Shown here in pieces: positions 13,101 to 53,430 of a stretch of 64,000 bases of DNA (positions are counted from its first letter, which is position 1; every line of letters starts with the position of its first letter). This DNA is from a virus (lineage: Duplodnaviria > Heunggongvirae > Uroviricota > Caudoviricetes). Under the pieces are notes generated by a model. That model had not been told where the DNA came from, made no database searches, and saw only the letters and a program-made list of their open reading frames with translations. The stretch lies in IMG/VR virus record IMGVR_UViG_3300030035_000024; one strand, written 5' to 3'. Made by a program: the position numbers and the translations under genes.

Positions 13101-15117
13101 AATCAGAAAGTGCTTTATCGAAAGCAGCGTCCAGTTCTGGTATATGGGCACTTCCCAGAGCCCCGCTGCCCGAGCTTCCACTTGAACTTGATGTCTTGTT
13201 ATCATTCAACTGGTTCAATTCATCGAAGGAAAGAACAGAAAGAGTTTTTTGTAATTTCTTCGCATTGTCGTTTGCATTGTCGAGCCCGGATGCAGCATTA
13301 TCTGTGCTGTCTGCAATATCTCCCATATCGACTGAAGCTTTTCCAGTTGAAGATACATAATCCGATAGCTTAATGCCAAGTAGTTTTGCGAGCCAAGAAA
13401 AAGCTCTTTCCAATGCCATAACAAGACCGTTAATATATGGAAGTACTTTTGCAACAATAGGGAGGAACAATGTTCCGATACTTCTACCAAGTGCTTCGAA
13501 ATTAGATTTCAACATACGAACCTGGTTGGCTGGTTGATTAATTGTTGAAGCCAAATCAGCCCATGCATATTTAGAACTATTCAATATTGTAATTGTTCTT
13601 AATATAGCTTTATCTGACTGGCTTAGACTTGATACAGTAGCGTCAATTCCAAGATTATAAAGTTCCTGTTGTAAATTTGCTACACGGATATTAATACCAT
13701 ATTTATCAAGTGCCCTGCTCATTCCGGTTATGCCAGAAGCCATATCATTCCAAACATCGTTGAATTCAAGATTTTTTACAGAAGCAAGGTCTGCTCCGAT
13801 TTCTGTTAAAGCTTGTGAAACCTTAGTTGATGCATCTGCTGTTGCCCCCATTGATGACGCCATCTGTGCATAAGTAGCTTGATAGTTCATCGTTTGTTTT
13901 GGATCAAGTCCAAGGCTCACGCCTTTTGTTCTAGTCAGATCACCTGCATCTGATACTTCAAATCCGGTCATTTTTTTTGTCAGCTCTTTTGCACGCTTTT
14001 CAAAGGAACCGACATATTCCTCTGCGGATTTTACTCCTGCATTCTGCCATTTGCTGATATCTAATCCATCAGTAACTTGATCGAACGCAGAATTAAAATA
14101 ATTAAGTGTTTCAACATAATCTGATGCAGAATTTACAGAATTCCAAAGTGCTTTAATTCCTCTTGTCACCGTGAAGAATTTCGCATATAATCCGGCAAGT
14201 TGTGAAGTTAATGAACCAACTTTTTTTGAAGTTACGTTTGCATTATTTCCAAATCCAGTTAAAGCAGAACTAGCAGCTCCAATCATGGATGATAACTTTT
14301 TCCCAGCATTTCCAAGTCCGTTTGTGGAATTTGATAATCTCGAAAATGAATTCGAAAGAGAATTTGTGGCTTTATTTATTTTTCCACTTGCAGTAGCTAA
14401 CTGTGCCAAAGCTTCTGTCATTCTTATTGTATTTTCGCTGATTCTTGGCGCAGTTTTCATTACATTGAAGAACGACAATACTTCATTCGCTAGTGTTCCA
14501 AGTTGGCTTGATGTTTGCCCGATTTTATTCCCAGCGCTTGCCAATTGTGCAATTGACTGAACAAACCTATTTACGGAATCTGAAATTCCATCAACACCAA
14601 TAAAGCTTTCTGTGATAAATTTCAAGTTACTTCCCAATGCAGGTAATTCAGCTGATACATTCGCAATATATTCACCGGAATTGGCTAATCTAGCCATTGA
14701 ATTGACAAAACGATTAACACTGGTAGATACATCCGGTATTTCCGATAAGCCTGATAATTTAGTGATTATTTCTCCGAGTTTCCCAGAATCAAATCCACTA
14801 ACATCAACCTGGCTAAGCCTGTTTATTGAGTTGATAACTGCATTCAGACCAGAGCCTTTATAATCTACTCCACCCATTGTCTTTATGGAATTTGAGAATT
14901 TTCCAATTCCATCAGCAATGCTTGTCATTTTCCCTATATCAAGTTCTTTTAGTTTTCCAAGTTCCCTTACACAACTACGCAATCCGTTTGTATTAACTCC
15001 GCTTAATGCGGAATTAACTTCTGTGAGTTTGTTTGAAAGATTAGTCAGCGCACGTACTGCTTTTTCTGTACTACTGCTAATCTGTATATCAAGGGTATCA
15101 ATGGTATTGTCAGCCAT
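10177..15117 (-). CDS. Tail tape measure protein (1646 aa)
   Basis: Very long, Ala/Gly/Ser-rich and helical with repeats; position downstream of the chaperone genes. Start placed at MADNTIDTLD, ATG 15117 with RBS AAAGGAGGG 9 nt upstream. Confidence 0.9.
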   Translation of the reverse strand: MADNTIDTLDIQISSSTEKAVRALTNLSNKLTEVNSALSGVNTNGLRSCVRELGKLKELDIGKMTSIADGIGKFSNSIKTMGGVDYKGSGLNAVINSINRLSQVDVSGFDSGKLGEIITKLSGLSEIPDVSTSVNRFVNSMARLANSGEYIANVSAELPALGSNLKFITESFIGVDGISDSVNRFVQSIAQLASAGNKIGQTSSQLGTLANEVLSFFNVMKTAPRISENTIRMTEALAQLATASGKINKATNSLSNSFSRLSNSTNGLGNAGKKLSSMIGAASSALTGFGNNANVTSKKVGSLTSQLAGLYAKFFTVTRGIKALWNSVNSASDYVETLNYFNSAFDQVTDGLDISKWQNAGVKSAEEYVGSFEKRAKELTKKMTGFEVSDAGDLTRTKGVSLGLDPKQTMNYQATYAQMASSMGATADASTKVSQALTEIGADLASVKNLEFNDVWNDMASGITGMSRALDKYGINIRVANLQQELYNLGIDATVSSLSQSDKAILRTITILNSSKYAWADLASTINQPANQVRMLKSNFEALGRSIGTLFLPIVAKVLPYINGLVMALERAFSWLAKLLGIKLSDYVSSTGKASVDMGDIADSTDNAASGLDNANDNAKKLQKTLSVLSFDELNQLNDNKTSSSSGSSGSGALGSAHIPELDAAFDKALSDYQKAWDQAFANVENKAQTVSDKIIKAFKQIRKNAKPTTAAIKKLYNEGLSRLGNFSINALKNLWKNYLQPIGKWSLSNNSGLPRFFNITNDLLTKINWLKLQTSLEGLFTMLQKPTQFVWTGLMDFYEHFLVPVGTWTMNGAIPQLVDALTSFGNNIHWEELNKSLKNFWDALAPFAKNVGQGIVDFYKDLLNVGENFINSTVPGGLNSIAEAIKNISPETAQAIGKSLGQISLAILGFKGLTFIGGIIGKDSPLGKGLSLLAKHPYASMALGIGGIVLALDNFGVIDVDWEWIWSSIDRVKTSIQNFIDKVDWNAVGTALGNLWSAFQPFAEGFADALITGLEGIINIGADLINGIANAINWLAEKLSGIDPEFIKQVGAAFGTLFAIKIAKDIATKIFSFASGIGSLASKLLNFPLDTASSLPTIIGDIGGAAETAGNGGFTTLAEKIKNLGDVAQTAGGQFQGFWGYATNLGATAFVVEGLGQVKKAMDFKDSTADAFNDFEVVRKALKIIEEQTGISGDKLIGLGGDLKNVKDNAFDFDGQLQTVETSLENLGISSDTFKQALKQAMEESDTSTNSHVSNINEYIGTMGTEFDNAKSALERLSNQAVITPTQFDELSAVLQQQESSGATARAAFQALMDKMAEMGIDTGKVIKAFSEDVPKSSSTMSKSVETATKSISSNSKTGFGIASAAVSTAMAGMKKSTESTMPSIWSKIKNTNDDVETNSKTNWGNSASAVSTALGTMDTDTKDVMGKVMTTIQSYWSSVLINTNQIWEKASGKVDTETGKMKSYTETNLSGISDKIKRLFNVNLTSIGRETAQSFADGMKQVHLPTLTYYISEWRKHDLGGGRTSSTPVYKPNWYAKGGLFNGAQVIGIGEAGSEAVLPLENPRTMKKIADSIVSSSDGSMGLTKEEMAKAVAQGVAMAMSMNSGNKNPQYIMNSIILDGSEIAKAVTKAQNETNSRFNPSPAY

Positions 15118-15165
15118 TTTATTTGTCCCTCCTTTTTTACAAAAAAAATAAAGGGCAGACAAGAC

Positions 15166-29300: not shown

Positions 29301-29332
29301 AAAAGTATCTTTCAGTATACTTCGGTATCATC
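29301..29332 (-). promoter_or_regulatory. Copy 3 of the 30-bp conserved motif (AAAAGTATCTTTCAGTATACTTCGGTATCATC)
   Basis: Lies about 80 nt upstream of the portal start and overlaps the stop codon of the ArpU-like gene. Confidence 0.45.
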
Positions 29333-29750
29333 TTTCAAAACCTTTTATCTTTTTTATTTCTGCTATGGCTTTTAAATGCTTTTTTTTAATGTGAATCTCT
29401 GAATAACCCATCTCATCTGCAATGCGAACCAAAGATTTGTACTCAACATAGTGCTTAAATAATATGTCATACAGTAATGGGTCTTCAACCTGTTCTATAG
29501 TTCGGACTATTTCTTGCCTTTTTTGCAAAAATTCGGATATCATTTTTGAAATCTCTTCTCGCAGATCAAATATCTTTGCAACCATATCTCCCATCGGATC
29601 ACGTTTTACAGAAGTTTGCACCTTTTCTCCAACAGGGATTGCAGATACACTTGTGGAAAGAGAACTGAGCTGTTCTTCTTCAATAAGCTTATTTTTGATT
29701 CTGTTATCATAATTTTCAATTTGTCGTAAATATTGAGCTGTAGTCATCAT
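29328..29750 (-). CDS. ArpU-like / sigma-r4-like phage late transcriptional regulator (140 aa)
   Basis: C-terminal HTH LVRIADEMGYSEIHIKKKHLKAI. Size and placement next to the terminase are typical of the ArpU family. Confidence 0.4.
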   Translation of the reverse strand: MMTTAQYLRQIENYDNRIKNKLIEEEQLSSLSTSVSAIPVGEKVQTSVKRDPMGDMVAKIFDLREEISKMISEFLQKRQEIVRTIEQVEDPLLYDILFKHYVEYKSLVRIADEMGYSEIHIKKKHLKAIAEIKKIKGFER

Positions 29751-29753
29751 ACT

Positions 29754-31448
29754 CTATCTCCTTCCCCACATAAAATTTTTGGTTGCTTTTACTTCTGCAA
29801 ATCTTTTGCCGGCAAGCGTTATTGCAAGCTGTGTAACTCCATCGGCGGCGTCATCATGTTCATTATCGCCAATATAGACGAATGTAGTTAATTCATCCAT
29901 AGCCTTTTGATACTGTTTATCTTGATATTTCGGAGCCAAAAATATAAAATTTTGCTTAACATCACCGGAATATTGATTTATTTTTTCTTTTTTTGCTTGT
30001 TTTGAAGGTGCTTTTGTACTTGTCGTGCTGCAAGCGTATTTATGTTCTTTCAAGCGTTCATTTACATAATAGGCATACATATCTCCACCATTATTTGCTT
30101 CAAAATTGATGGATTGAATATTATTTCCCATGATTCTTCCAACAACTAATGGCAATGTTCCTTCTTTTGGTGCTGTGCTAAAAATCCAATCATAAATATA
30201 TACATCTCCATTTTCGTATTCTGCACCCACTGGCATTGATAAGCTATCGCCACCACCCCACGCAACATCGCAAGCAGAAACATTTTTAACAAATCCACCT
30301 TCTGGTAGAACGCCGTTATAATATCTCAATTCATCAGCTGCAAACACAATTCCTTCACGCAAGAAGGGCTTTTGCTGATATTTGGCTTCCCATTCGTTAG
30401 CGTCTAGCCTAGCTTTCATATCAACATAATATTTTGTTGAAAATCCAACACCATACTCATAATCGAAATTGGATTCACCATCATCATTCAAAGCTGGAAT
30501 TTTTCTAAACCGATACATTGGATTATCCCGATTTAGCTTCTCGATTTTTCCAAGAGGGTCATATAAATTCCATCTGGTTCCAACCATAAGTTCTCTTGCA
30601 CCATCAATCTTACGGTCAACCATCTTGTTCAGATATTCTTGATATGTATTTTCCAATCGGGTAGGGCTTAATGAATGTTGCCTATCTCTTACAAGGTCAT
30701 CCACGTACAAATACCCATCAGAAGAAATATCAACGGCACCTGTCCAAGTACCTTCAATACCACGGCAAGTCATTGTTGCAAATCGGTCTGGTTTGTCCAG
30801 GTTTATTTCAAAATCATCAGCACTCTGTTTTTGAAGTTTCGACTGTGGAAAAATTTCACTGTAGTTGTATTCCTGTGTATTAATGAGATTAAGAAGTTCT
30901 CCGTAAAATCCTTTTGCCAGTTTTCCAGAATGACCGCCCATTGCACTATGGCTATTCGGTCTTTTTCCCATTATCCATGACATAAAGAAAATACACATAG
31001 TAGATTTTCCAACACGGCTCGGAAGTGATAAGCCGTAAAACTCTATCTTTCTTTCTTCCAAATCTTGTAGGTCTTTGGCTACTACATGTAGTGTTTTTTT
31101 TCGTGGAATATAAAATTTCTTGCTGTCCGGTCTATTTTTCTCCATATAAAGCAAGTAACTTTCAAATAAATGTGGCGCTTCCATCAGCAAATACTGCCAG
31201 TAGATATCGTCAAAGTCACCACTACCAGTTAATGCAGCACACTTCTCTGCTATGTTATGTGAGTATTGACTTACTTTCATAGCCATTTTCCGTGCTTCTT
31301 GGTTCTTGTTGAAAGGAAGGTCAATATTCATATTTAAGAGCAAATCAAGGCAATCTTTTTGGTTCTGATAGATTGTCATATCACTACTGATAATTTGATT
31401 CAGCACTGCCCGATACCATTCAAGCGAGCCTTCTGTAATTTTTCCCAT
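29754..31448 (-). CDS. terL: Terminase large subunit (564 aa)
   Basis: Walker A GLSLPSRVGKST. C-terminal nuclease acidic motifs including DDAADG. Confidence 0.85.
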   Translation of the reverse strand: MGKITEGSLEWYRAVLNQIISSDMTIYQNQKDCLDLLLNMNIDLPFNKNQEARKMAMKVSQYSHNIAEKCAALTGSGDFDDIYWQYLLMEAPHLFESYLLYMEKNRPDSKKFYIPRKKTLHVVAKDLQDLEERKIEFYGLSLPSRVGKSTMCIFFMSWIMGKRPNSHSAMGGHSGKLAKGFYGELLNLINTQEYNYSEIFPQSKLQKQSADDFEINLDKPDRFATMTCRGIEGTWTGAVDISSDGYLYVDDLVRDRQHSLSPTRLENTYQEYLNKMVDRKIDGARELMVGTRWNLYDPLGKIEKLNRDNPMYRFRKIPALNDDGESNFDYEYGVGFSTKYYVDMKARLDANEWEAKYQQKPFLREGIVFAADELRYYNGVLPEGGFVKNVSACDVAWGGGDSLSMPVGAEYENGDVYIYDWIFSTAPKEGTLPLVVGRIMGNNIQSINFEANNGGDMYAYYVNERLKEHKYACSTTSTKAPSKQAKKEKINQYSGDVKQNFIFLAPKYQDKQYQKAMDELTTFVYIGDNEHDDAADGVTQLAITLAGKRFAEVKATKNFMWGRR

Positions 31449-31457
31449 AAAAACAGA

Positions 31458-31500
31458 GCCAGACCTCCTTTCTTTTTAGGATTTAGTCTGGCTCTCATGT
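31458..31500 (-). promoter_or_regulatory. Hairpin (9-bp arms GAGCCAGAC/GTCTGGCTC) between the SPFH gene and terL
   Basis: Perfect inverted repeat seen in the sequence; possible attenuator or processing site. Confidence 0.3.
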
Positions 31501-31522: not shown

Positions 31523-32476
31523 TTATTCAGCATTCTCATCGGATGTCATATCTCTTGTATCTACGATGGTAGAAGTGTTACTTCCATAAATCTTCGGAAC
31601 TTCACCATTCCATTTATCAATTTTCTGTTTTTCAATCAGTTCGGGAGTAAGAGATTCTGCGATTTTTCTATTTGCTTCTGCTTCAGCTTCTGCTTTAATC
31701 TTAATAGCTTCAGCTTTACCTTCTGCATCAATTTTGGCCTGTTCCGCTTGGATAGATGCTTTCTCCTTTTCCTGTTCAGCAGCAATCAGTGCAACTTCTT
31801 TATCTTTATCAGCTTGTACTTTTGCTGTTTTAGCTTCAATGTTAGCAAGTTCAAGCTCCTGTTGAGCGTTCACTTTCTTCTGAATTGCAGCCTGTGTTTC
31901 ATCATCGGTGGAAATAGAAGTAAAGTTTACTGTATCAATAATAATTCCGTATGGCTCAAACTTCTGTTTAAGATATTCGTCAAGTGCTTCATTCAGTTCC
32001 TGGCGTTTATCACCGAAAACATCTGTTACTGGATACTTCGCAGTTACTTCCTGAGTCCATGCTTTCATCTTTGGTTTAATAAAGGTATTCTTCACGGATT
32101 CACCGGATTGTCCTTTGAACTGAGTAAATACATCAGTTACTCTGCTCTGATCGAATTTATAAGAAAATTCAAGGTCAACTTGAAGCGATTTACCATCTGC
32201 TGTTGGTGTCTTGAAGCTTTCATCTTTTGGAGAATCGCCCTTATCCTCAGATGTAAGATAAGACTGCTCGATTCCAACGGAATACAGTGAAGTTTTTACT
32301 GTAGGTGAAATCAAATGCCATCCCTGTGTAAGTACATTCTTAGAGATTCCTCCGTTCATTTTGTACTCTACCGCAATGTAACCAGCCGGAACTCTCACAC
32401 TGCACTTTGCAACACATATAAGTCCTGCAATGATTACAACAGCTAATCCAATTCCACCTAAAAGTCCTTTTTTCAT
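31523..32476 (-). CDS. SPFH/band-7 (stomatin/prohibitin/HflKC-like) membrane protein (317 aa)
   Basis: N-terminal TM, then VRVPAGYIAVEYKMNGG...GWHLISP, the SPFH core. C-terminal Ala/Glu/Lys coiled coil. Confidence 0.75.
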   Translation of the reverse strand: MKKGLLGGIGLAVVIIAGLICVAKCSVRVPAGYIAVEYKMNGGISKNVLTQGWHLISPTVKTSLYSVGIEQSYLTSEDKGDSPKDESFKTPTADGKSLQVDLEFSYKFDQSRVTDVFTQFKGQSGESVKNTFIKPKMKAWTQEVTAKYPVTDVFGDKRQELNEALDEYLKQKFEPYGIIIDTVNFTSISTDDETQAAIQKKVNAQQELELANIEAKTAKVQADKDKEVALIAAEQEKEKASIQAEQAKIDAEGKAEAIKIKAEAEAEANRKIAESLTPELIEKQKIDKWNGEVPKIYGSNTSTIVDTRDMTSDENAE

Positions 32477-32637
32477 TTATTATCCTCCTCTTTTTGACTT
32501 TCGTCTTTATTTAACTCATCAATAGCATTTCTTCCAATGTGGTTCAATAATTTACCTAGTGGTTGAAATAATTTGTAAAGCAGGAACCATACTACTGCCG
32601 CTCCGCATACCACTAGAAATATAAATACTGGGTTCAT
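32473..32637 (-). CDS. Small membrane protein (54 aa), translationally coupled to the SPFH gene
   Basis: MNPVFIFLVVCGAAVVWFLLYKLF... Its TGA overlaps the SPFH ATG (ATGA). Confidence 0.35.
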   Translation of the reverse strand: MNPVFIFLVVCGAAVVWFLLYKLFQPLGKLLNHIGRNAIDELNKDESQKEEDNK

Positions 32638-32841
32638 TCAATCACCTAACTTTCTACAAATTTCAATAAAATCTGGCTTACTAAGTTCTTTCAGCTTGTC
32701 AGCATATTTTGGAAATTCATGTGTATATATCGGATGACCTAAAAGTTTTTCTGCGTATTCGTATGCAAGTCTTCTGTCATCACCTGTAAGCATACAAATT
32801 CCTGTATAGGTTTCAATTACTACGGCTTCTTGTTTTGTCAT
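32638..32841 (-). CDS. Hypothetical (67 aa)
   Basis: ORF-track ORF. Confidence 0.3.
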   Translation of the reverse strand: MTKQEAVVIETYTGICMLTGDDRRLAYEYAEKLLGHPIYTHEFPKYADKLKELSKPDFIEICRKLGD

Positions 32842-32862: not shown

Positions 32863-33057
32863 TCATATTTTTAATTCCGTAAAAATATTTTCAATTACTT
32901 TCCATTCTGCGAATACTGCCATAAACAGTAATGGTACTGCAGAAAATCCCCAATGATTTTCAATCATCATTTGAATTGTGGCTATCAAATAATCTGCTAC
33001 CCATTTGGATATTATGAAATTCGCAATTATCCAACATATTTTTCTGATTTTGTTCAT
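32863..33057 (-). CDS. Small membrane protein (64 aa)
   Basis: Hydrophobic segments. Confidence 0.3.
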   Translation of the reverse strand: MNKIRKICWIIANFIISKWVADYLIATIQMMIENHWGFSAVPLLFMAVFAEWKVIENIFTELKI

Positions 33058-33338
33058 TTGGTCACCATCTTTCTTTTTGATTTCAAGTATTTTCTGTATT
33101 TGCGACTGTATTTACGAAGAATTAAATCGAGCATAATGCTATTTGTCTGTTCTACGTTTTCTGACATAGTTGTGAGATATGGATAATCTTCTCTATCATC
33201 TACTAATGTCTTGAAGATTAAGTCTAAAGCAAACTGAGCACTGACAGGTGGGTCGCACAGTTCAAAGTCTTTATCCTTGTACCACTCATCAATCTTCTTT
33301 TGGAATCCATCAAAGGATATTTCTTCGTTCCATATCAT
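33054..33338 (-). CDS. Hypothetical (94 aa)
   Basis: ORF-track ORF in a tightly packed operon with 4-nt overlaps. Confidence 0.3.
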   Translation of the reverse strand: MIWNEEISFDGFQKKIDEWYKDKDFELCDPPVSAQFALDLIFKTLVDDREDYPYLTTMSENVEQTNSIMLDLILRKYSRKYRKYLKSKRKMVTK

Positions 33339-35757: not shown

Positions 35758-35829
35758 TAGAAACAACAGGAATCGAACCTGTGTCACATGATATTCAATA
35801 TCATTGCTCTACCACTGAGCTATGTTTCA
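35758..35829 (-). tRNA. tRNA-like gene (72 nt): canonical D and T arms, anticodon loop AUUGAAU (anticodon UGA, Ser-type without a long arm), 1:72 U-U mismatch
   Basis: Minus-strand TGAAACATAGCTCAGTGGTAGAGCAATGATATTGAATATCATGTGACACAGGTTCGATTCCTGTTGTTTCTA. Followed by a structured region (TCTGGCAA/TTGCCAGA hairpin). Confidence 0.45.
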
Positions 35830-35882
35830 TATCACCGCCTGTCACGGTCAGTTTAGAAACTGAGTTGATTTTCACCCTTTAT

Positions 35883-37334
35883 TTATTCCACTTTGATACA
35901 ATCATATCTTTCTGAATTAATTACATTTTCCATAGCTTCAATCGGATTGTATCCAAGATTCTGTAAGATTTGTTTGAAAACTGTTACAGATTGACCACTT
36001 GCAAGTTGAACGCCTTTTCTTTTTGAATCCGCATGAAATACGTCATGTCTTCTTTTAACATTCCAGAAAATAATGTTTGGAATAACGTATCCGGCTTTAT
36101 GGAACTTGTTTGCCATTTTATCATAAAACGACCAATTTCGATTTCCACAATAATCAATTTCCATATCAGAAATTACGACAATAGCTTTCGGCATTTCTTC
36201 CTGTGAAATATTATTTTTTTCTGCTATATCAAGCACCTTTTCAAATGCAGCTTTAAGGTCTGTACTATTGCCCCAATCAGCCCTTTTAGCATTATTGATT
36301 TTCTGTGAAAGGGTTTCACCCTTTAAAACAACTGTTTCTGGATTACTGGAAAATGTCATAAACAAATTGTGGTATGCCCCAACATTTCTTTCGGCAAAGT
36401 ATATTGCCAATCCGATTGATGTTGCCATTGGTCTTCCATACATTGAACCGGATACATCAGCCATAATCAAAGCGTTTGTTCCCTGTTCTATGTAATTTGG
36501 GAGTGCTTTCCATTGTGCTTCAAGAACTTTATTGTTCTCTCGTCCGTAAAGGATTTTTTCCACGATGTCATAAGGATACAAAGTTGAAGCGTTGATTTTA
36601 ACTTCTCCTTTATCAGCCTTATTAATAAAATCATTAAATCCATCTGGATCATGTTTTGCAAAAGCCTTGCGATAAATCATCATTGCACGGCTCGGAACTT
36701 CTGGATATTTAATCTCATTCCATTTACCGGCAGACATAAGGCTTTCAACAACACCGATCTGTTTTCTCATGCTACGAACAATTCTCTTAAAGTTGTAGAC
36801 TGGATAACCCAACTTCTGTGCAGTCAAGATTCCTAACTTCCTAGTTTCTCTGCTACTTGCATCAGCAGTCTTAATCCATTTAGCAAGTAAAGAAATTGCT
36901 TTTCCATCATTGAGATTTTTCAAATCTTCCTCAAATTGTTTCTTCATAGATTTCCACATGTCATCTTCAAGTGGTGTTTCAATCAGTTCATACAGATCAT
37001 CGTATCTCCCGAATACTCCAATCAAATCAAGATTCGGTCTGAGTGCTTCTGGATGATGTTCAGCCATGTAACGGATAATGGTTCGAAAAGTTTTTCTCTC
37101 TCCAAGCCCACAACGAATATCTCTTGCATAAAAAGCAATCTTTGTGGCAAAGAGTTTATCCTGTGCAAATGCTTCTGAGAATAAAGTGGTGATTCTATTT
37201 TCATCAGCTTCTCTCAATGCACCAATAGTTCCGAACAGGTCAAGTCTTGCATCGCTTGTAGTATTCAGCGCAACTGCTCCGTTTTCGGTTCTTGTAAATT
37301 TTTTTTCTTGTTTCATTGCATTTGCAAAATCCAT
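35883..37334 (-). CDS. vWA-domain protein with N-terminal helical (TROVE-like?/DUF2828-like) region, 483 aa
   Basis: MIDAS motif DVSGSM (D-x-S-x-S) with downstream T and D in a vWA-like segment (aa 290-420). About 290 aa of helical N-terminus. Flanked by tRNA-like RNAs. Confidence 0.5.
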   Translation of the reverse strand: MDFANAMKQEKKFTRTENGAVALNTTSDARLDLFGTIGALREADENRITTLFSEAFAQDKLFATKIAFYARDIRCGLGERKTFRTIIRYMAEHHPEALRPNLDLIGVFGRYDDLYELIETPLEDDMWKSMKKQFEEDLKNLNDGKAISLLAKWIKTADASSRETRKLGILTAQKLGYPVYNFKRIVRSMRKQIGVVESLMSAGKWNEIKYPEVPSRAMMIYRKAFAKHDPDGFNDFINKADKGEVKINASTLYPYDIVEKILYGRENNKVLEAQWKALPNYIEQGTNALIMADVSGSMYGRPMATSIGLAIYFAERNVGAYHNLFMTFSSNPETVVLKGETLSQKINNAKRADWGNSTDLKAAFEKVLDIAEKNNISQEEMPKAIVVISDMEIDYCGNRNWSFYDKMANKFHKAGYVIPNIIFWNVKRRHDVFHADSKRKGVQLASGQSVTVFKQILQNLGYNPIEAMENVINSERYDCIKVE

Positions 37335-37487
37335 GTTTCTTCTCCTTTCAGGACACGAAAAATATAAAATATACGAATTAGATTTTATTTAAGTGAGTTG
37401 CTGCAAGCGTCCCATAAATTTCATGATGCTTTTTGGTTTCATAATTAACAGTTATGTCCAAAATGATTGCTGTAAGCATCACATAAT

Positions 37488-37577
37488 TGCCCCGACAGGA
37501 TTTGAACCTATAAAATTATTTGCAGTGAAGAACACAAACATGTTCTAATCGGTTTTCCGTAACCGATAACCGGGGCA
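37488..37577 (-). ncRNA. Aberrant tRNA-like RNA A (90 nt): acceptor, D and T arms retained, anticodon arm replaced by a 6-bp stem with a UGUUUG hexaloop
   Basis: Minus-strand TGCCCCGGTTATCGG...CCGATTAGAACATGTTTGTGTTCT...ATAGGTTCAAATCCTGTCGGGGCA. 7-8-bp acceptor pairing, T-loop TTCAAAT, and no 7-nt anticodon loop. Confidence 0.5.
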
Positions 37578-37578
37578 G

Positions 37579-37692
37579 TGACGAGGGATGGATTCGAACC
37601 ACCAACCTATGCCTTGTAATGGAGTAAATTGCTGTTATAGTCACAAACATGACTAATATTCTCATTGCTCTGTCCAATTGAGCTACCTCGTC
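37579..37692 (-). ncRNA. Aberrant tRNA-like RNA B (114 nt), 1 nt upstream of A; same CAUGUUUGUG hairpin plus a 27-nt insertion
   Basis: GACGAGGTAGCTCAATTGGACAGAGCA...AGTCATGTTTGTGACT...GGTGGTTCGAATCCATCCCTCGTCA. Perfect acceptor, D and T arms; AAUGAG/CUCCAUU long-range pairing encloses the insertion. Confidence 0.5.
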
Positions 37693-37751
37693 TAAAAACC
37701 AACAATAGATATGCTAAAGTAAGATATCCTATCTACACCTGGTAGATGGAA

Positions 37752-37823
37752 TTGCAGGAGACGGATTCGAACCGCCGTTCTCAAGGATATGAGCCTTGCG
37801 AGATTCCACTTCTCTATCCTGCC
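37752..37823 (-). tRNA. tRNA-Met(CAT), initiator-like 1:72 mismatch (G-A)
   Basis: GGCAGGATAGAGAAGTGGAATCTCGCAAGGCTCATATCCTTGAGAACGGCGGTTCGAATCCGTCTCCTGCAA; anticodon loop CUCAUAU. Confidence 0.6.
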
Positions 37824-38113
37824 GGAACCCGGAAAAACCGGGCTAGCAATAGGTTTATCGTGTTATGCTTTCCACTATCTACAAGTTTTAGTGCTGTAGA
37901 TTCACTGGATATTTTTATACGTCTTAGAACGGCATCTCTTGAAAACTCCTTTTATTAACGTGCGCTGCGTTAATATTTTTAACTCAGAGATATACCAGCC
38001 GGGAAATCAGATCCATTTAAGCTACGCCGTATCGCACCTAAATTTACCTAATCCACACGCTCAACTGGAAGTTTTTTCCACCCATATTACGGATGAATGG
38101 CATTTAGAAGAAA

Positions 38114-38186
38114 TGGAAACTCTGGGATTCGAACCCAGGACTTACGGCTTATGAGGCCGTTGCTCTTACCACTGAACTAAGCTTCC
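38114..38186 (-). tRNA. tRNA with CAT anticodon (elongator Met or Ile2)
   Basis: GGAAGCTTAGTTCAGTGGTAAGAGCAACGGCCTCATAAGCCGTAAGTCCTGGGTTCGAATCCCAGAGTTTCCA; canonical cloverleaf. Confidence 0.75.
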
Positions 38187-38335
38187 TGAGATACCAGAAA
38201 TAAGCCCGCCATAGATTTATTTCTGGCACTGTTGCAGTTCTTGACCGCCAGCCGCAACAAAGGTTTTCTGAAACGCTTTTGGATTCCAGAAAAGATTGTT
38301 ATAAAATGAACTTGCGGCGTTAGCAAAACCGCAAA

Positions 38336-38408
38336 CTGGGCTAACTGGATTCGAACCAGTAAATGCAGCAATCAAAGTGCTGTGCCTTAACCGTTTGGCG
38401 ATAGCCCA
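38336..38408 (-). tRNA. tRNA-Gln(TTG)
   Basis: TGGGCTATCGCCAAACGGTTAAGGCACAGCACTTTGATTGCTGCATTTACTGGTTCGAATCCAGTTAGCCCAG; closely matches the Bacillus-type tRNA-Gln scaffold. Confidence 0.8.
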
Positions 38409-45350: not shown

Positions 45351-46430
45351 ATGAGTAAATATTTTAAGAGCGTAACAAGTTATCAAGATTTGAAAGATCA
45401 GTATAGAAAACTTTTGAAAGAAAATCACCCGGACAACGGCGGCGACCTGGAACAGATGCAGGAAATCAACGTAGAATACGATGCAATGTTTAAAATCTGG
45501 AAAGATCGCGCAGCTGTTGCAAATAATCTTTCAGAAGAAGAAAAAACAGAAACCGCAAGAAGCACAAGACGCCATTTTTACAGTGCTTACGGCTGGGAGG
45601 GTTCAAGATACGATGTTAATTTGTCATTAAAAGAGATTGCTAAAATTGTAAGAGCCTATGTAAAAGAAGAATACCCAACTTGCAAATTTAGCATTCGCAC
45701 TCATTACGCAAGTATGTGCCAGTCATTAAGCGTTGATTTGCTGGAATTCCCGGAACAGATGTATAAAACCGCTGCGGAACTTAAAGAAAACTATTATACA
45801 GAAAACACGTATATAGATAAAGACGGAAAAACTCAGAGCTACAAAACCATGTCGGAAGAAGTAAACGAGATGTGGAGAAAATTAAATAGAAATAATATTT
45901 TTACACTTGACAGCTGGACAGATGACGATCTATTGAAATGCTATGAAAAAGTTGTTTTTGAGGAAAACAAATCATTTTTCGGGGTACAAACTGAATATTT
46001 TAAAAGCGTTGTTGATGATGTAAACGCCTTTATTGCTTCTTATAATTACGATGACAGCGACAGCATGACGGATTATTTTGATGTTAATTTCTACGGCGGA
46101 GAAGTTGATTTTAGAAACTGTAAATATGTTCCAAAAGTCGCCAGAATTAAAAAGCAAAATACAGCCCCGGCAGCAAAAGAAAATAAAGAAGAATCAAGCG
46201 CCGCAGAAATTGAAACAAGCGGAAAAGCTTATACAGTGGAAGAAAGCCAGCACACAAAAACAGGCGAAAAGATTTATCTTGTAAAATGGCTCGATACTCT
46301 CAGCAGAGAAAGCTATAAAGAATTAAATAGCCAGATTAAAAAGTTAGGCGGCTATTATTCGAGATTTACACATAGTTTTATTTTTAAAGATGATCCTACC
46401 GAAATTTTGAAAGAGGTAAAAATCGCATGA
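45351..46430 (+). CDS. J-domain (DnaJ-like) protein with large C-terminal domain (359 aa)
   Basis: YQDLKDQYRKLLKENHPDNGGDLEQMQEINVEYD carries the HPD motif of J domains. RBS GGGTGAGGGTG. Confidence 0.6.
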   Translation: MSKYFKSVTSYQDLKDQYRKLLKENHPDNGGDLEQMQEINVEYDAMFKIWKDRAAVANNLSEEEKTETARSTRRHFYSAYGWEGSRYDVNLSLKEIAKIVRAYVKEEYPTCKFSIRTHYASMCQSLSVDLLEFPEQMYKTAAELKENYYTENTYIDKDGKTQSYKTMSEEVNEMWRKLNRNNIFTLDSWTDDDLLKCYEKVVFEENKSFFGVQTEYFKSVVDDVNAFIASYNYDDSDSMTDYFDVNFYGGEVDFRNCKYVPKVARIKKQNTAPAAKENKEESSAAEIETSGKAYTVEESQHTKTGEKIYLVKWLDTLSRESYKELNSQIKKLGGYYSRFTHSFIFKDDPTEILKEVKIA

Positions 46431-46954
46431 TAGAATGTAAAACAAATTGTTGCAGGTGCCAAAAATATGGCACCTGTGAACGATCACAAGAAAGATTATT
46501 TGAAAAGCTTTTTACTCGTTACGGATATGTACAGAAAGAAATGAGTAATAAAACAATACATATTTACGAACAACATCCGGAAAACTTACACAGTGAAAAG
46601 GAAATTTTAGAAAGATTCAGTCATGCAAAAGGAACTATTGAAGAATTAGAAGAAATGTTATTAGAATTAAAATCTTATCAAATAGAATTGTCAAAACGTT
46701 ATAATTATATTTTAACTTCTCCCATAAAAAAGAAGATAGAATTAAAAAGAGAAAAGCTCTATAGAAAAAACGTTATTTACTATATAAATTTTTATGATGT
46801 TAATTTAAATGACGGTCATGAGGAATTGACAAATTTTATAAAATATTCTGGAATTGAGCGAAAACAAGCGTTATTGCATTTTGAACAATTAAAAAAAAAA
46901 AATCCGAATGCTTTTTTTAAAAAAGATATTGAGCGTAATAAATGGGAAAAATAA
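46427..46954 (+). CDS. Hypothetical (175 aa), N-terminal Cys cluster
   Basis: MIECKTNCCRCQKYGTCE; charged helical remainder. 4-nt overlap with the upstream gene. Confidence 0.35.
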   Translation: MIECKTNCCRCQKYGTCERSQERLFEKLFTRYGYVQKEMSNKTIHIYEQHPENLHSEKEILERFSHAKGTIEELEEMLLELKSYQIELSKRYNYILTSPIKKKIELKREKLYRKNVIYYINFYDVNLNDGHEELTNFIKYSGIERKQALLHFEQLKKKNPNAFFKKDIERNKWEK

Positions 46955-46970
46955 TGTGGAGGTCTAAAAC

Positions 46971-47183
46971 ATGAAATATCATTACATAGCAATTTCAACA
47001 CGCACAGGCAATAAAAACTTTGCTTCTGTTCTTCGGGTCTCAAGCTCTGACAATTTATTATTTTCCTTGCAAGTCCCCGGCATTACTTCCGCAAATATTT
47101 GTAGCACAAAAAAAGAAGCTGAAAAAGTCGTTGATTTTTGGAACAAGTGTTACAAGAAAAATAAAACTTATGGAGGGTTTTAA
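46971..47183 (+). CDS. Hypothetical (70 aa)
   Basis: ORF-track ORF. Confidence 0.25.
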   Translation: MKYHYIAISTRTGNKNFASVLRVSSSDNLLFSLQVPGITSANICSTKKEAEKVVDFWNKCYKKNKTYGGF

Positions 47184-47250
47184 AATGAATAGAAAATTAA
47201 CTTACCAGCAATGGCAGCAGATACACTATAACATTGGCTATTAATATGCG

Positions 47251-47278
47251 TTGCCCGGTTGATTCCGGGCAAGTTTTT
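47251..47278 (+). terminator. Rho-independent terminator
   Basis: TTGCCCGGttgattCCGGGCAAgTTTTT. Confidence 0.5.
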
Positions 47279-47338
47279 GTACTGTTTATTTTTGGCTTAG
47301 CGTATGATATAATAACATAAAATGGGGGGGTAATACAT

Positions 47339-47767
47339 ATGATAATGTTAAAAATAGAAAAATGGGAAAGCGTTGTAAATGAAACTATTAAGCATTTTTT
47401 TGATAATTATAAAGTATTTGATGATAATAACAAAGCTTTAGAAAATAAAAGCCTGTATCAATACATTAATGATATTTGCGAAAAAGGCCCGGAAACAGAA
47501 ATCTTGCACTTTTTATTTACTGGTGAAAGTGAATATATCCAATTTGCTGGAAAGTACAATATTTCTTTGTACTATGAATTTACGCAAGAACTTGAAAACA
47601 AATTGATTGATGAATTTTATTCCCTTAATAAAAAGCAATTCTGTGACGATCTCGAAAATTTTACAGATTATTTTTTAAGCGAACACACAATTTTATTGAA
47701 AACATATATTTATGATATTCTTGATGGTTTTACGGCTAAAAAGTTAAAAAACCTTATTTTCAAATAG
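47339..47767 (+). CDS. Hypothetical (142 aa)
   Basis: ORF-track ORF with RBS GGGGGG. Followed by a GC-rich terminator-like hairpin CCGCTT...AAGCGGTTTTTTT (47780-47840). Confidence 0.35.
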   Translation: MIMLKIEKWESVVNETIKHFFDNYKVFDDNNKALENKSLYQYINDICEKGPETEILHFLFTGESEYIQFAGKYNISLYYEFTQELENKLIDEFYSLNKKQFCDDLENFTDYFLSEHTILLKTYIYDILDGFTAKKLKNLIFK

Positions 47768-49506: not shown

Positions 49507-51219
49507 TTATAGTGCTAAAAGGTACTTATATTTGAAAAATACCATATCTTGTGTCTTAATGCAAGTTTTCCTACTAAATATCTTGTGTTGTTCTGGATGT
49601 AGAGTTAAAATCATATCGTCAGAACGGCACAAGGGAAACCCCCATTTTTCAAGGCCTCCAGACCTTAATTGAAATGTCAGTGTTGCACATGTAACCGCCA
49701 ACGGTTCAACGGTAATTTTCTCAAAAAGTTCATTAACAATCTGTCTGTTAATATCTTGTGGAGTAACGCCTTTGAACTTTTCTAGCTGTTCTTTAATAGC
49801 ACTTAATTGTATTTCTACTGGCTCTGGACTTTTGGTATTTTGGATTTCTAGAATATGGCTCTCAATCTGCTTTATCTGCTTCACGTATTCTTTATTTCTT
49901 GAAATAAATTCATCATCAGATATTTTTCCATCCAGATTATATTCCAGTATTTTTTCACGTTTTTGTTTTAACAGATCAATCTGTTTTTCAAGTCGTGAGA
50001 TTTCGTTTTTATTGTCTGGAATGTTTTTGATCGAGGACTGCAAAATTTCAAAATATTCCTCCAAAATGCTATCAATGTTTTCAGAAGATTTATTTATCAA
50101 TTCTGCAATTATTTCTTTCAGTTCTGATTCTGCCAGTCCAAATGAATCACATGAAGCTGCTCCGTTTTTTATCTTATAACTGCATACCCATCGAACATCT
50201 TCTTTTCCTCGAATATAATGCTGCTTCATCCAGTATGGAGCTCCGTCATTTGCGCAGAAAAGTTTTCCAGTGAAAATATTTTCGTTTTTAAAAGAGGTTC
50301 TTCTTGATTTTATAGCTTCTCCACGCTCTCTTAAATATGCGTTTGCCTTTTCCCAGGTAGTTTCATCAATGATCTGCGGTACTCTGGAACCATCATCCTT
50401 AAACATTATCCATTCTGACTGTGGAAGAAATTCTTGTTTCTTGGTGAACATATCGACAACCTTTACTTTTCCTCCACAATAGTATCCTTTGTATTTTGGA
50501 TTCCGAATAATATTTTTTATGACATCCCGGTTGATTTTCCCACCTTTGAAACTTCTGTATCCCATATCCCAGAGTTTTTTTTCTATTCTTGGCGTAGATA
50601 TTCCGGAAGCGTAATCTTGAAAAATCATTCGAACCATGTCCGCTTCTTCTGGAACCAGTTCGAGTTTTCCTTGATTGTTTGAGTATCCATACATTCTGTG
50701 CCCGAGAACAACACCATTTTTGATTGACTGTGCGTGTCCAAATTTTACTCTTGAAGAAAGCTTGCGGATTTCGTCCTGCGCTACCCCAGCCATAATAGTA
50801 AGTCTGAACTCACTATCATCATCAATAGTGTTAATTCCATCATTTTGGAACCACACGCATACGCCGTAAGATAACAATTCCCTGGTATATTGGATGCTGT
50901 CAAGAGTATTTCGTGCAAATCTTGAAATTTCTTTCGTAATAATCATGTCAATTTTTCCGAGCTTTGCATCTCTGAGCATTCTTTGAAATTCTTCTCTTTT
51001 ATCCGCATGTATTCCAGAAATACCATCATCAATGTAAGAACCAGCAAACTTCCATCTGTTGTTAGAATGTATCAGCTCTTCAAAATGTTCCTCCTGGTGC
51101 TTAATGGATGCTTGCTGTTCAACTTTTTCAGTAGAAACCCTGGCATAATAAGCAACATTTAGTTCAATGTCGTAAATAGAGCAATTTCTTAATTTTTCTC
51201 TGACATAATAAATATTCAT
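49507..51219 (-). CDS. Large serine recombinase (phage integrase, about 570 aa)
   Basis: YARVSTEKVEQ...DDGISG...SRFARN catalytic domain; recombinase domain; zinc ribbon CANDG...CSYK...C; coiled coil. Start at MNIYYV with RBS AAGGGAG. Confidence 0.85.
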   Translation of the reverse strand: MNIYYVREKLRNCSIYDIELNVAYYARVSTEKVEQQASIKHQEEHFEELIHSNNRWKFAGSYIDDGISGIHADKREEFQRMLRDAKLGKIDMIITKEISRFARNTLDSIQYTRELLSYGVCVWFQNDGINTIDDDSEFRLTIMAGVAQDEIRKLSSRVKFGHAQSIKNGVVLGHRMYGYSNNQGKLELVPEEADMVRMIFQDYASGISTPRIEKKLWDMGYRSFKGGKINRDVIKNIIRNPKYKGYYCGGKVKVVDMFTKKQEFLPQSEWIMFKDDGSRVPQIIDETTWEKANAYLRERGEAIKSRRTSFKNENIFTGKLFCANDGAPYWMKQHYIRGKEDVRWVCSYKIKNGAASCDSFGLAESELKEIIAELINKSSENIDSILEEYFEILQSSIKNIPDNKNEISRLEKQIDLLKQKREKILEYNLDGKISDDEFISRNKEYVKQIKQIESHILEIQNTKSPEPVEIQLSAIKEQLEKFKGVTPQDINRQIVNELFEKITVEPLAVTCATLTFQLRSGGLEKWGFPLCRSDDMILTLHPEQHKIFSRKTCIKTQDMVFFKYKYLLAL

Positions 51220-51300
51220 AGTGCATTTCTCCCTTAATAAACAGGGAGTGGAATCATATAAAGTATAACACCTCATATAACTCCACTCAATACATTTTCG

Positions 51301-52121: not shown

Positions 52122-52519
52122 GTACCATCCACATTTTCAGATACCGCCCATTCTCTAAGCTGTGCCGGGCTTGATACCGCTTTCTGGATGATTTTTGGGA
52201 GCTTATCAAACTCCGTTTCTGCATATAATGCAGAGCTTTGAATGGCTCTGCGCACCATTTCCCATGCTTCTGTTTCGTTCAGTTCTTCTTTTTGAAGCAT
52301 AAGGCTCTGCGCGCATTGCCGTAATGCAGCTATTGTAGGCTCTTTACATTCTGTCTGCATATATTTCTTTAACCCAAAACTTAAAAGCTTGTAATCTAGG
52401 TCTTTCAGTAATCCGTACCAAGTATCAAAAGCATATTGATCTGGCAGAAATGATGGAGAAGTGTACACAGCTTTCATTGCCTTTACGAGTACCGCCCATT
52501 CTTCTCTTTTCATACCCAA
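51959..52519 (-). CDS. Hypothetical replication-module protein (186 aa)
   Basis: Follows the replisome organizer with a 10-nt overlap. Confidence 0.35.
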   Translation of the reverse strand: MGMKREEWAVLVKAMKAVYTSPSFLPDQYAFDTWYGLLKDLDYKLLSFGLKKYMQTECKEPTIAALRQCAQSLMLQKEELNETEAWEMVRRAIQSSALYAETEFDKLPKIIQKAVSSPAQLREWAVSENVDGTWWSVVQSNFQRTYRAEVQREQERRKLSPDLLKIIDSARLGGVEKCQIENHGEN

Positions 52520-53430
52520 TTATCCACCTCGCTTACTCTGTTTTGAATTTTCTCCATGTAGCTGCACGGTCTATTCGTAGACTTGTCTGCGTATTGCCCT
52601 TCAAATACTTTTGCGAAATTTCCAGGCTTTAAGAACCAGTCAAACGTAACCATCCAGCCATTTTTATTTTGCCCTTGTAGGAATGTGCTGTGTCGAATAT
52701 TTTCAATCGCTTCCAGAATATCTTCAACACAGTTCTGACGGATTCTAGCTTTTACTGCCTGTTCTCGTTTTGGTGTCATTCTTTTTACAGGAGTAATACC
52801 AAATTCTTCCAGAGTATTCCATTCATCAATGATTCGTTGGACGTCAGTCTGACGAATAGTATCTTTAGATACTATTAAATCATTCTCTTCTTCTATTTCT
52901 TTTTCTTTATTATCTAATTCTTTATTATCTAGTTCTTTATTATATACTTCTGCCGAGCTAACGTTAGTTTTACTGTTAACTTTACCGTAAAGTTTACTGT
53001 TAGTTTTACACTCTATTTTGTCTTTCTGCTTTTTTCGATATTCTTGCATATAGTTTCGCATATATTGGCTTTTTTGCTCAATTTTATCAAGATTTTGATA
53101 TTTTCCCCAGTTCGGAATTGTGTAAACACCGGAAACAATTTCAATCATTCCGTAGTTTTCAAATGTTTTTAACGCTAATCGAACTGTATTAATGTCTCTT
53201 CTAAATACTGTTGCCAACATTTCATCTGTATATGCAATTTTATCGTTTAAAATAAAAACACCACTGTTGTTATTTTTCCCGGCTAAGCATAATAATTTGA
53301 ACCATATTACGATAATGCTGTCTGCACTTGGCAAATTTTCAATCAGCATTATTTTTTCATCGTCGAAAATATCTGAACATATTTTTATCCATTTTACATC
53401 GCTTGCCAATTCTAAAATTCCTTTCTCCAA
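52510..53430 (-). CDS. Phage replisome organizer (DnaD-like), 306 aa
   Basis: N-terminus MEKGILELASDVKWIKICSDIFDDEKIMLIENLP fits the replisome-organizer N-terminal pattern; central low-complexity linker. Confidence 0.55.
   Translation of the reverse strand: MEKGILELASDVKWIKICSDIFDDEKIMLIENLPSADSIIVIWFKLLCLAGKNNNSGVFILNDKIAYTDEMLATVFRRDINTVRLALKTFENYGMIEIVSGVYTIPNWGKYQNLDKIEQKSQYMRNYMQEYRKKQKDKIECKTNSKLYGKVNSKTNVSSAEVYNKELDNKELDNKEKEIEEENDLIVSKDTIRQTDVQRIIDEWNTLEEFGITPVKRMTPKREQAVKARIRQNCVEDILEAIENIRHSTFLQGQNKNGWMVTFDWFLKPGNFAKVFEGQYADKSTNRPCSYMEKIQNRVSEVDNWV

Follow-up and report, generated by a model that had tools for sequence, protein, structure and literature searches.

A Prohibitin-Type SPFH Gene and the Gene of a Small Membrane Protein as an Accessory Pair in Phage Genomes

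Introduction

An SPFH (Band-7) gene directly in front of the terminase gene of a tailed phage raises the questions of what such a protein does for the phage and which of its neighbors belong with it. The locus in question is part of a 64,000-nucleotide (nt) stretch of DNA from a virus of the class Caudoviricetes (IMG/VR record IMGVR_UViG_3300030035_000024), which is called the window hereafter. On its minus strand, an open reading frame (ORF) for a 54-residue single-pass membrane protein, read from the sequence (32473..32637), is followed by the gene for a 317-residue prohibitin-type SPFH/Band-7 protein (31523..32476) and, 74 nt further downstream, by the terminase large subunit gene terL (29754..31448; phrog_38, E = 4e-51). 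The standard example of a connection between SPFH proteins and phage lysogeny is HflK/HflC-FtsH of Escherichia coli. The anatomy of the locus given in a first-pass annotation was confirmed, as the SPFH protein, the small membrane partner, the ATGA overlap between their genes and a hairpin before terL were all present, on the minus strand.

Identity and Architecture of the SPFH Protein

The 317-residue protein matched Pfam Band_7 (PF01145) over residues 28–219 with an E-value of 7.4e-22 and a score of 78.7 bits (cut-off 23.6), and it matched phrog_200 with an E-value of 4.9e-67. In a PDB profile search with the protein and its relatives, the best matches were PHB1 (3.7e-19), PHB2 (6.8e-18) and erlin (1.6e-10), followed by weaker ones to HflK/C (about 5e-7 to 1e-5, of which HflK was 5.5e-7), QmcA (1.6e-5) and stomatin (2.5e-3). 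Foldseek with an AlphaFold (AF2) monomer model, whose mean predicted local distance difference test score (pLDDT) was 75, matched the cages of prohibitin, erlin, HflK/C, stomatin, QmcA-YbbJ and flotillin, all with a probability of 1.0; the match to the prohibitin complex 8rrh had an E-value of 1e-15, and the ranking order agreed with that of the PDB profile search. Moreover, a Blautia obeum protein that is 86% identical carries the name "prohibitin family protein." By these profile matches and its predicted fold, the phage protein is a full-length, cage-type protomer of the prohibitin branch, which corresponds to SPFH4 (PMC2636767). No NCBIfam family matched either protein of the pair at E ≤ 0.01, the HflK/HflC models included. 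An identity of the two genes as an HflK/HflC pair was rejected, as there is a single SPFH gene, the gene upstream encodes a 54-residue non-SPFH protein and NCBIfam gave no match.

The AF2 model consisted of a transmembrane (TM) helix (residues 2–24), an SPFH domain (residues 26–189), a long helix (residues 192–275) and a disordered tail. The TM helix forms the putative N-terminal membrane anchor (32405..32473, minus strand), in which MKK precedes a hydrophobic helix that ends at Cys25, and it is followed by the SPFH/Band_7 domain as delimited by the Pfam envelope and AF2 secondary structure (residues 28–219; 31820..32395, minus strand). The domain contains an acidic loop, LTSEDKGDSPKDESF (residues 74–88; 32213-32257, minus strand), which is strongly conserved and specific to the Clostridia-phage clade, being absent from the homologs of Bacillus, Staphylococcus and Streptococcus phages; the pLDDT was low at residues 76–85 within this loop. 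The Ala/Glu/Lys-rich helix of about 85 residues (31652..31903, minus strand) was continuous in the model, aligned with the prohibitin coiled-coil region and corresponds to the coiled-coil wall of SPFH cages. The C-terminal tail (31523..31651 with the stop codon, minus strand) carries a conserved K-W-N/D-G-x-x-P...G motif (KWNGxVP here), which is kept in the homologs of Clostridia, Bacillus, Staphylococcus and Klebsiella phages. Its disorder in the monomer model is consistent with a segment that becomes ordered on oligomerization, although this proves nothing.

A cysteine at the position of Cys25 (32402-32404, minus strand) was present in 34 of 36 homologs and lies within 1–2 residues of the lipobox cysteine (LTGC) of the Klebsiella phage homolog; it is perhaps a remnant or a residue that becomes modified. 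The PHROG label "lipoprotein" was rejected for the protein of the window, as no canonical lipobox precedes Cys21 or Cys25 (positions -3 to -1 are GLI and VAK, respectively). Different from this protein, the homologs of phages of Gram-negative bacteria do have a lipobox.

A Conserved Small Membrane Protein Accompanies the SPFH Protein

The 54-residue protein is composed of a TM helix, the motif W-F-L-L-x-x-x-F-x-P-L-G-K, a basic juxtamembrane helix and an acidic tail with a net charge of -3. The TM helix covers residues about 4–23 (32569..32628, minus strand), with a Kyte-Doolittle 17-residue maximum of 2.95 at residue 4. At 90% identity, the protein's family falls into 27 clusters that share an invariant TM/PLG motif, with M1, N2, V4, F5, W17-F-L-L20, F24 and P26-L-G28 as the invariant residues. 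A profile search over 1.84 billion representatives extended the family to 397 clusters at 50% identity (E ≤ 1e-3), nearly all of which were 45–75 residues in length. Given this invariant motif, together with an ORF that is intact in all 80 near-identical loci and under purifying selection (see below), the 54-residue ORF is a real gene and not a chance ORF.

The family was without a match in Pfam, PHROGs, NCBIfam and PADLOC, and tblastn of the 54-residue protein against 50,697 GenBank phage records returned nothing at E ≤ 0.1. Thus, at that sensitivity, the partner family is essentially limited to uncultured gut phages and prophages. A search of viral contigs with the partner alignment found near-identical loci only and added little diversity. 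Two identities considered for the small protein were rejected: a holin, as there was no Pfam or PHROG holin match and the neighboring genes were not enriched in lysis genes, and an NfeD protein, as there was no Pfam match and 54 residues are too few for a TM helix plus an OB fold.

The two genes are physically interlocked. At 32473-32476, the TGA stop codon of the small ORF lies within the ATGA that holds the ATG of the SPFH gene, and the Shine-Dalgarno sequence of the latter, GGAGG (32484..32488, minus strand), read from the sequence 7 nt before the ATG, is made by Glu codons among the last codons (K-E-E-D-N-K) of the small ORF. The ATGA overlap shows that the two genes share an operon; translational coupling would agree with it, but the overlap is no proof of coupling.

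The same arrangement was found far beyond the window. Homologous loci were collected with six closer sequences, which gave 44 loci from species-representative genomes, mostly metagenome-assembled genomes of Clostridia, with SPFH identities ranging from 44 to 93%; 40 of them had enough upstream sequence for a partner to be scored. A single-TM ORF of 46–76 residues that ended within about 115 nt of the SPFH start was present in 34 of these 40 loci, versus 9 of 323 (2.8%) for other ORFs in the same loci. The two ORFs overlapped by 1–20 nt in 18 of 27 scored loci, 12 of which had the identical 4-nt overlap. A single hidden Markov model (HMM) covered the partners, reached loci whose SPFH identity was 46–51% and also matched at loci L090, L129, L132 and L133. 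In the reciprocal direction, three distant members of the partner family were chosen arbitrarily: two precede a Band_7 gene with a 4-nt overlap, and the locus of the third is rearranged. The conserved pairing is the new point of this study, as it reveals an unannotated partner family for an SPFH branch that was believed to be partnerless.

Architecturally equivalent pairs are also found in more distant phages, such as MbpV-MbpS of Kayvirus (1-nt overlap), gp48-gp49 of Bacillus phage BMBtp1 and gp141-gp142 of Bacillus phage Spock. With the partner HMM, gp179 of Bacillus jumbo phage AR9 scored 21.8 bits versus a maximum of 15.3 in 930 shuffles, and it was the only protein among those tested that exceeded the shuffled controls; homology was not demonstrable by this HMM for Kayvirus MbpV (-2.8 bits), Spock gp141, BMBtp1 gp48 and HSTV-4 gp49. 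In two loci, a small TM ORF lies directly downstream of the SPFH gene: at 1946-2080 of L140 (Halorubrum virus HSTV-4) and at 4832-5035 of L090 (gut phage MT835474), the latter having an upstream partner as well.

Purifying Selection and Recurrent Loss

The SPFH protein was at least 97% identical to those of 80 IMG/VR contigs of about 80 kb. In these 80 near-identical loci, the small ORF was intact throughout, with 22 synonymous versus 12 non-synonymous variant codons, and the SPFH gene had 217 synonymous versus 38 non-synonymous variant codons. Both genes are under purifying selection.

The SPFH gene has also been lost repeatedly. Four independent in-frame deletions (P0140, P0142, P0270, and P0276) fuse the TM segment of the partner to the C-terminal tail of the SPFH protein. 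The P0140 fusion occurred on at least 23 contigs of up to 86 kb, with a deletion junction inside the imperfect repeat ATTGAT.A.T..AAT, and in loci L081 (4001-4213) and L082 it is found at the corresponding position, and both the hairpin and terL are preserved. A clean deletion of the SPFH gene with terL intact was found in related phage genomes of 55–86 kb. In addition, a cultured Clostridium isolate (L130; 4838-5772) carries a frameshifted SPFH copy upstream of terL, and the SPFH gene of L133 is split. The TM part of the partner was kept in every case of a decayed SPFH gene that was seen.

Recurrent deletion and breakage together with strong purifying selection on the intact copies mark the SPFH gene as an accessory one that is of use to the phage but not essential. 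That the gene might turn out to be a conserved structural or assembly gene of this phage group, the outcome that the first-pass annotation had named as fatal to its proposal, was not borne out, as the natural deletions show the SPFH gene to be dispensable. Because these deletions occur among near-identical 80-kb phages, they also provide ready-made isogenic comparisons.

The Hairpin, terL and Other Neighbors

Between the stop codon of the SPFH gene and the AUG of terL lies a terminator-like hairpin (31454-31496) with a U5 tract (31449-31453), together 31449..31496 on the minus strand. The stem is formed by GAGAGCCAGAC/GUCUGGCUCU and is followed by U5 and then by the terL AUG, all within the 74-nt spacer. 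The fold energy was -26.9 kcal/mol (z = -4.29), and 0 of 200 shuffles were as good; a simple terminator scan missed the hairpin, as its loop is longer than 8 nt. The Shine-Dalgarno sequence of terL, GGAGG (31464-31468), is buried in the hairpin stem, and the AUG follows the U-tract without a gap. A promoter-like -35/-10 pair at 31549-31522 would put the hairpin in a short 5′ leader, although such matches were not above chance (34 sites found versus 27.4 expected). This leader layout is reminiscent of lambda PR′-tR′ with a Q-like regulator nearby: a DUF1492/ArpU-like regulator with weak sigma-70 region 4 and antiterminator-Q matches (phrog_36, E = 4e-19) is encoded at 29328-29750 (minus strand), between terL and the portal gene and not upstream of the packaging genes.

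The first-pass annotation had counted the hairpin and the place before the terminase gene among the unusual traits of the pair. Neither is general. Among 44 diverse genomic loci, terL came directly after the SPFH gene only once, and a terminator-like hairpin followed this gene in 7 of 42 loci versus 31 of 268 control ORFs, which is no enrichment; moreover, the hairpin was retained in relatives that had lost the SPFH gene. Because they are rare or unenriched elsewhere, terL adjacency and the hairpin are traits of the early/late boundary of this phage group. A Pfam census of 231 flanking ORFs gave scattered genes of early functions and DNA metabolism (RNA ligase, NrdD, UvrD, methylases, and HTH regulators), among which no family occurred more than five times and the small TM protein was the sole recurrent partner. 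The census contained no FtsH, NfeD, holin or endolysin. Thus, the conserved unit is the pair only, and terL, the hairpin and the other neighbors vary.

Genomic Setting of the Pair

The phage nature of the window is apparent from an SPP1-type portal gene, which lies downstream after the DUF1492/ArpU-like regulator, as well as from a tape measure protein, a large serine recombinase, tRNAs, DnaD-like initiators and a single-stranded DNA-binding protein (SSB). Near copies of the pair's region are present as prophages in Blautia genomes. The phage, a gut phage of roughly 80 kb, probably has Blautia or another member of the Lachnospiraceae as its host and, as it encodes a recombinase, is likely temperate. 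Pfam and PHROG scans recognized no small terminase gene beside terL.

Directly upstream of the small ORF, with a 0-nt gap, is a DUF7736 gene (32638-32841, minus strand), preceded by an ORF for a 64-residue protein with two TM segments (32863-33057, minus strand) and by a gene for a 94-residue homolog of the type II Thoeris inhibitor Tad8 (33054-33338, minus strand; Pfam E = 1.1e-30), which is thus three genes upstream of the pair. Further upstream, a tRNA cluster (35758-38408; Ser-TGA, two Met-CAT, and Gln-TTG) is interleaved with the gene for a 483-residue DUF2828/DUF7788/vWA protein (35883-37334, minus strand). The stretch from the tRNAs to terL looks like an accessory or anti-defense island.

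The large serine recombinase (Resolvase, Recombinase and Zn_ribbon_recom domains; 49507-51276, minus strand) is encoded amid phage DNA, beside a short plus-strand island (45351-47767) in which the GC skew is reversed and which includes an LPD29-domain protein. Two DnaD-like replication-initiator genes are located at 7466-8530 and 52510-53430, both on the minus strand. After the tape measure gene (10177-15162) come HNH and DnaD-like genes in place of baseplate or lysis genes, which points to a mosaic junction or to another element near 10 kb. In the 64-kb window, neither an endolysin nor a holin gene was identified.

Distribution of SPFH Genes Among Phages

SPFH homologs were found by tblastn in 528 of 50,697 GenBank phage records, including 275 of Staphylococcus (mostly Kayvirus MbpS), 54 of Bacillus, 53 of Enterococcus and 29 of Klebsiella; others were from Salmonella, Escherichia, Erwinia, T4-like and haloarchaeal viruses. 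Most of the 528 records belong to virulent groups, such as Kayvirus, Schiekvirus, SPO1-like, AR9, T4-like and Vi01-like phages. Published lists of SPFH ORFs date from 2006 for T4-like phages (PMC1524935) and from 2011 for Vi01-like phages. A phage copy of an SPFH gene is therefore not unusual, contrary to the earlier annotation: the protein falls in phrog_200, its homologs are spread over these records and their existence has been noted since 2006. Phage SPFH genes are common and optional, and the cassette is of a fairly ordinary accessory type. Because phrog_200 is a large family that extends to Kayvirus phages used in therapy and to abundant phages of the gut, its role is of wider interest; as the SPFH genes of Firmicutes phages are nearly always accompanied by a small partner, both genes are relevant to experiments.

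Predicted Topology and Timing

Thirty-one members of the partner family had 0 K/R before the TM helix and 2.3 K/R versus 0.1 D/E in the next 15 residues, so that the predicted N-out/C-in orientation of the small partner is well supported. For the SPFH protein, an extracytoplasmic SPFH domain is suggested by several lines of evidence. Its anchor had 2.2 K/R in the N-terminus of 4–6 residues versus 1.3 K/R in the 15 residues after the TM helix. The Klebsiella phage homolog is exported, because it bears a true lipoprotein signal (LTGC). For prokaryotic prohibitins (SPFH4), an orientation toward the periplasm, as in prohibitin and HflK/C, has been predicted (PMC2636767).

Timing can be approached from Kayvirus. 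In phage vB_SauM-515A1, mbpV-mbpS form transcription unit TU15, which has its own consensus early sigma-70 promoter, is among the five most abundantly transcribed units and has counts that are stable from 5 to 30 min (PMC7698491), whereas the holin and endolysin are expressed last (PMC7698491; PMC9241854). In the window, no promoter of the pair's own was seen; the two genes are predicted to be the last genes of an early/middle accessory operon, far from the recombinase gene.

Possible Roles of the Pair

The data show the identity and fold class of the SPFH protein, the pairing of the two genes, the selection on them, and the mobility and dispensability of this membrane cassette. We favor, with moderate confidence, the reading that a prohibitin-type cage and its dedicated partner condition the host membrane before the late genes are turned on; cage assembly, topology, physical contact between the two proteins and their purpose are inferred. 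The pair would be expressed as a unit, ahead of the hairpin that precedes the late genes. On the grounds of its homology to prohibitin, HflK/C and QmcA-YbbJ, the SPFH protein would form a ring- or cage-shaped fence around a patch of the host cytoplasmic membrane, with the outer face as the most likely side. As a dedicated partner, the small protein would have its TM helix in or at this fence and its tail in the cytoplasm, and its role may be likened to that of NfeD in the stomatin and flotillin branches of the SPFH proteins. A conditioning of the host membrane while the phage grows lytically would be the most likely purpose, through control over which membrane clients reach a quality-control protease such as FtsH or through maintenance of membrane integrity; building of the virion or setting of lysogeny would be less likely purposes. 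As the cassette is independent of the packaging, lysis and lysogeny modules, the plausible roles are narrowed to host-membrane conditioning. Candidates for the client or process are FtsH-type gating, superinfection exclusion, protection against membrane-targeting defense effectors and lysis timing, of which a lysogeny-specific version is the weakest, because most homologs are in virulent phages.

Several points weigh against this proposal. An adjacent TM partner is absent in Enterococcus phage phiSHEF13, Arthrobacter phage Richie, Streptococcus phage 315.1 and the Klebsiella lipoprotein form. Adjacency of the two genes would also be expected from co-inheritance alone, and the codons of the partner tail partly double as the Shine-Dalgarno sequence of the SPFH gene, so that part of the tail's conservation may be at the nucleotide level. 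The positive-inside signal of the SPFH anchor is modest. Among the neighbors, no FtsH, NfeD or protease gene was linked to the cassette. Finally, a search of the accessible literature turned up no experimental work on a phage SPFH protein, and the purpose is for this reason drawn from cellular homologs alone.

A more far-reaching reading is that the pair represents an undescribed, phage-specific two-component membrane-cage system, the SPFH4 counterpart of SPFH-NfeD, which would serve in counter-defense or exclusion, with the partner tail as the link to the cell interior. For example, the cage might protect the membrane against abortive-infection effectors that form pores or against entering phage DNA. 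This reading is tentative and carries a rather low probability.

Among the alternatives, a rather unlikely one, though the best placed, is superinfection exclusion by a protective "moron," in which the cage, made from a prophage or early in infection, would block the entry of DNA of competing phages. The predicted membrane location, the accessory nature of the pair and its place in a variable region that also holds the Tad8 anti-defense gene are in line with exclusion. So are the likely temperate lifestyle indicated by the serine recombinase and the movement of the cassette between genomic contexts. T4 Imm and Sp are early exclusion proteins, and the early and abundant expression of the Kayvirus pair is compatible with such proteins. 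In addition, the SPFH ORF of PhiSH19 adjoins an annotated exclusion gene. However, the pair lacks a promoter of its own, follows the DUF7736 gene without a gap and lies inside a lytic operon 17 kb from the recombinase gene. No exclusion family was matched, and the PADLOC models matched neither the pair nor the three genes upstream. Recurrent loss in prophages would also be odd for a gene that protects the lysogen.

The idea put forward in the first-pass annotation, i.e., that the protein is a phage analog of HflK/C that modulates host FtsH and sets the choice between lysis and lysogeny, as HflKC-FtsH-CII does in lambda, appears unlikely in the light of the distribution described above. Its FtsH part agrees with the closest solved relatives, as prohibitin and HflK/C both bind FtsH-type AAA proteases (PMC2636767), and its lysogeny part agrees with the phage being probably temperate. 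Against it, most of the 528 homolog records are from virulent groups, a caveat that has also been made elsewhere (PMC8540360), there is a single SPFH gene in place of an HflK/HflC pair and no NCBIfam HflK/HflC match, the neighborhood census found no linked CII/CIII-like or FtsH gene, and an interaction between SPFH4 proteins and FtsH has never been shown (PMC2636767). The lambda-style proposal is weakened by homologs that are mostly in strictly virulent phages, by the early expression of the Kayvirus pair and by the position of the genes in a lytic early/middle operon; FtsH-type gating stays among the candidate processes.

A lysis-timing module, in which the small protein would be holin- or antiholin-like and the SPFH scaffold would control its assembly or the export of lytic enzymes, is likewise improbable. 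This explanation draws on Kayvirus, in which lysK and tgl flank the pair and in which earlier authors likened MbpV to holins and suggested that MbpS helps to export Tgl (PMC7150955); at L084, where the pair sits among SLT, SSB and Spo0A_C genes, the SLT transglycosylase gene is two genes downstream. The small protein, however, matched no holin family, and its tail is acidic, not basic. Lysis genes were not enriched among the 231 neighboring ORFs and none is within three genes of the pair in the window. In Kayvirus, the pair is driven early by a promoter of its own, and the holin and endolysin genes are the last to be expressed.

Doubtful to a similar degree is a counter-defense role, in which the cage would shield or repair the membrane against membrane-disrupting abortive-infection effectors, such as the TM effectors of Thoeris II, CBASS and similar systems. 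The pair is three genes from the Tad8 homolog, and Tad3-Tad8 bind TIR domains or Thoeris effectors (PMC13243611). The Kayvirus pair is expressed early, the accessory, patchy and often-lost distribution of the pair is typical of anti-defense genes, and cellular SPFH proteins take part in membrane-stress responses, e.g., YdjI/SamI with PspA (PMC8581546). The basis of this explanation is gene context, whereas the neighbors at other loci are not anti-defense genes by Pfam and no known anti-defense family was matched.

A structural or assembly role in the packaging module, e.g., as a stand-in for the missing small terminase, is highly improbable: although the gene occupies the usual place of terS directly upstream of terL, no terS was recognized and three SPFH peptides were found in a Vi01-like virion proteome, the product is a clear membrane-anchored SPFH protein, terL adjacency is confined to 1 of 44 diverse loci and relatives of 55–86 kb have cleanly deleted the gene with terL intact.

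Comparison With Known Systems

Of the cellular systems, YdjG/YdjH-YdjI (SamG/SamH-SamI) of Bacillus subtilis resembles the phage pair in that small membrane proteins encoded upstream recruit the SPFH protein, with a link to PspA and membrane stress. Different from the phage protein, YdjI/SamI is a cytosolic SPFH protein without a TM anchor of its own.

Similar to the phage protein, HflK/HflC of E. coli, which act with FtsH, have the SPFH cage architecture and an N-in/C-out orientation of the kind suggested for the phage protein. They are, however, two tandem SPFH paralogs; the phage protein matched no HflK/HflC model, had a weaker profile score to them than to prohibitin and showed no linkage to FtsH.

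The SPFH-NfeD operons (QmcA-YbbJ, FloT-YuaF, and PH1511-PH1510) also encode a membrane partner directly upstream in one operon, and a cryo-EM structure of an SPFH cage with its partner exists (8z5g), which was among the Foldseek matches. The phage partner, in contrast, is only 54 residues in length and has no NfeD OB-fold domain. Moreover, NfeD pairs accompany cytoplasm-facing SPFH proteins of the stomatin and flotillin types, not those of the prohibitin type (PMC2636767).

Among phages, MbpV-MbpS of Kayvirus (Staphylococcus phages K, MSA6, and vB_SauM-515A1) is among the closest known systems. A small protein with an N-terminal TM segment and a charged C-terminus is encoded directly upstream with a 1-nt overlap, MbpS is a full-length homolog of the SPFH protein (27% identity, E = 4e-27) and the two genes form the bicistronic unit TU15. 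MbpV, however, has 102 residues and is not detectably homologous to the 54-residue partner. In addition, Kayvirus is virulent, and its pair is located in the region of the lysis genes under an early promoter of its own, whereas the pair in the window ends a long operon before terL in a phage that encodes a recombinase.

Prokaryotic prohibitins (SPFH4; Hinderhofer et al., 2009) and PHB1/PHB2 are the best match of the phage protein in both profile and fold, and they share its order of N-terminal anchor, SPFH domain and coiled coil. PHB1/2 form a heteromer of two paralogs, whereas a single SPFH gene is present here. For SPFH4, no operon partner has been described (PMC2636767), whereas the phage clade has a conserved partner, the acidic loop and the KWNGxVP tail. 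Prokaryotic prohibitins, which have been held to be partnerless, may have a partner.

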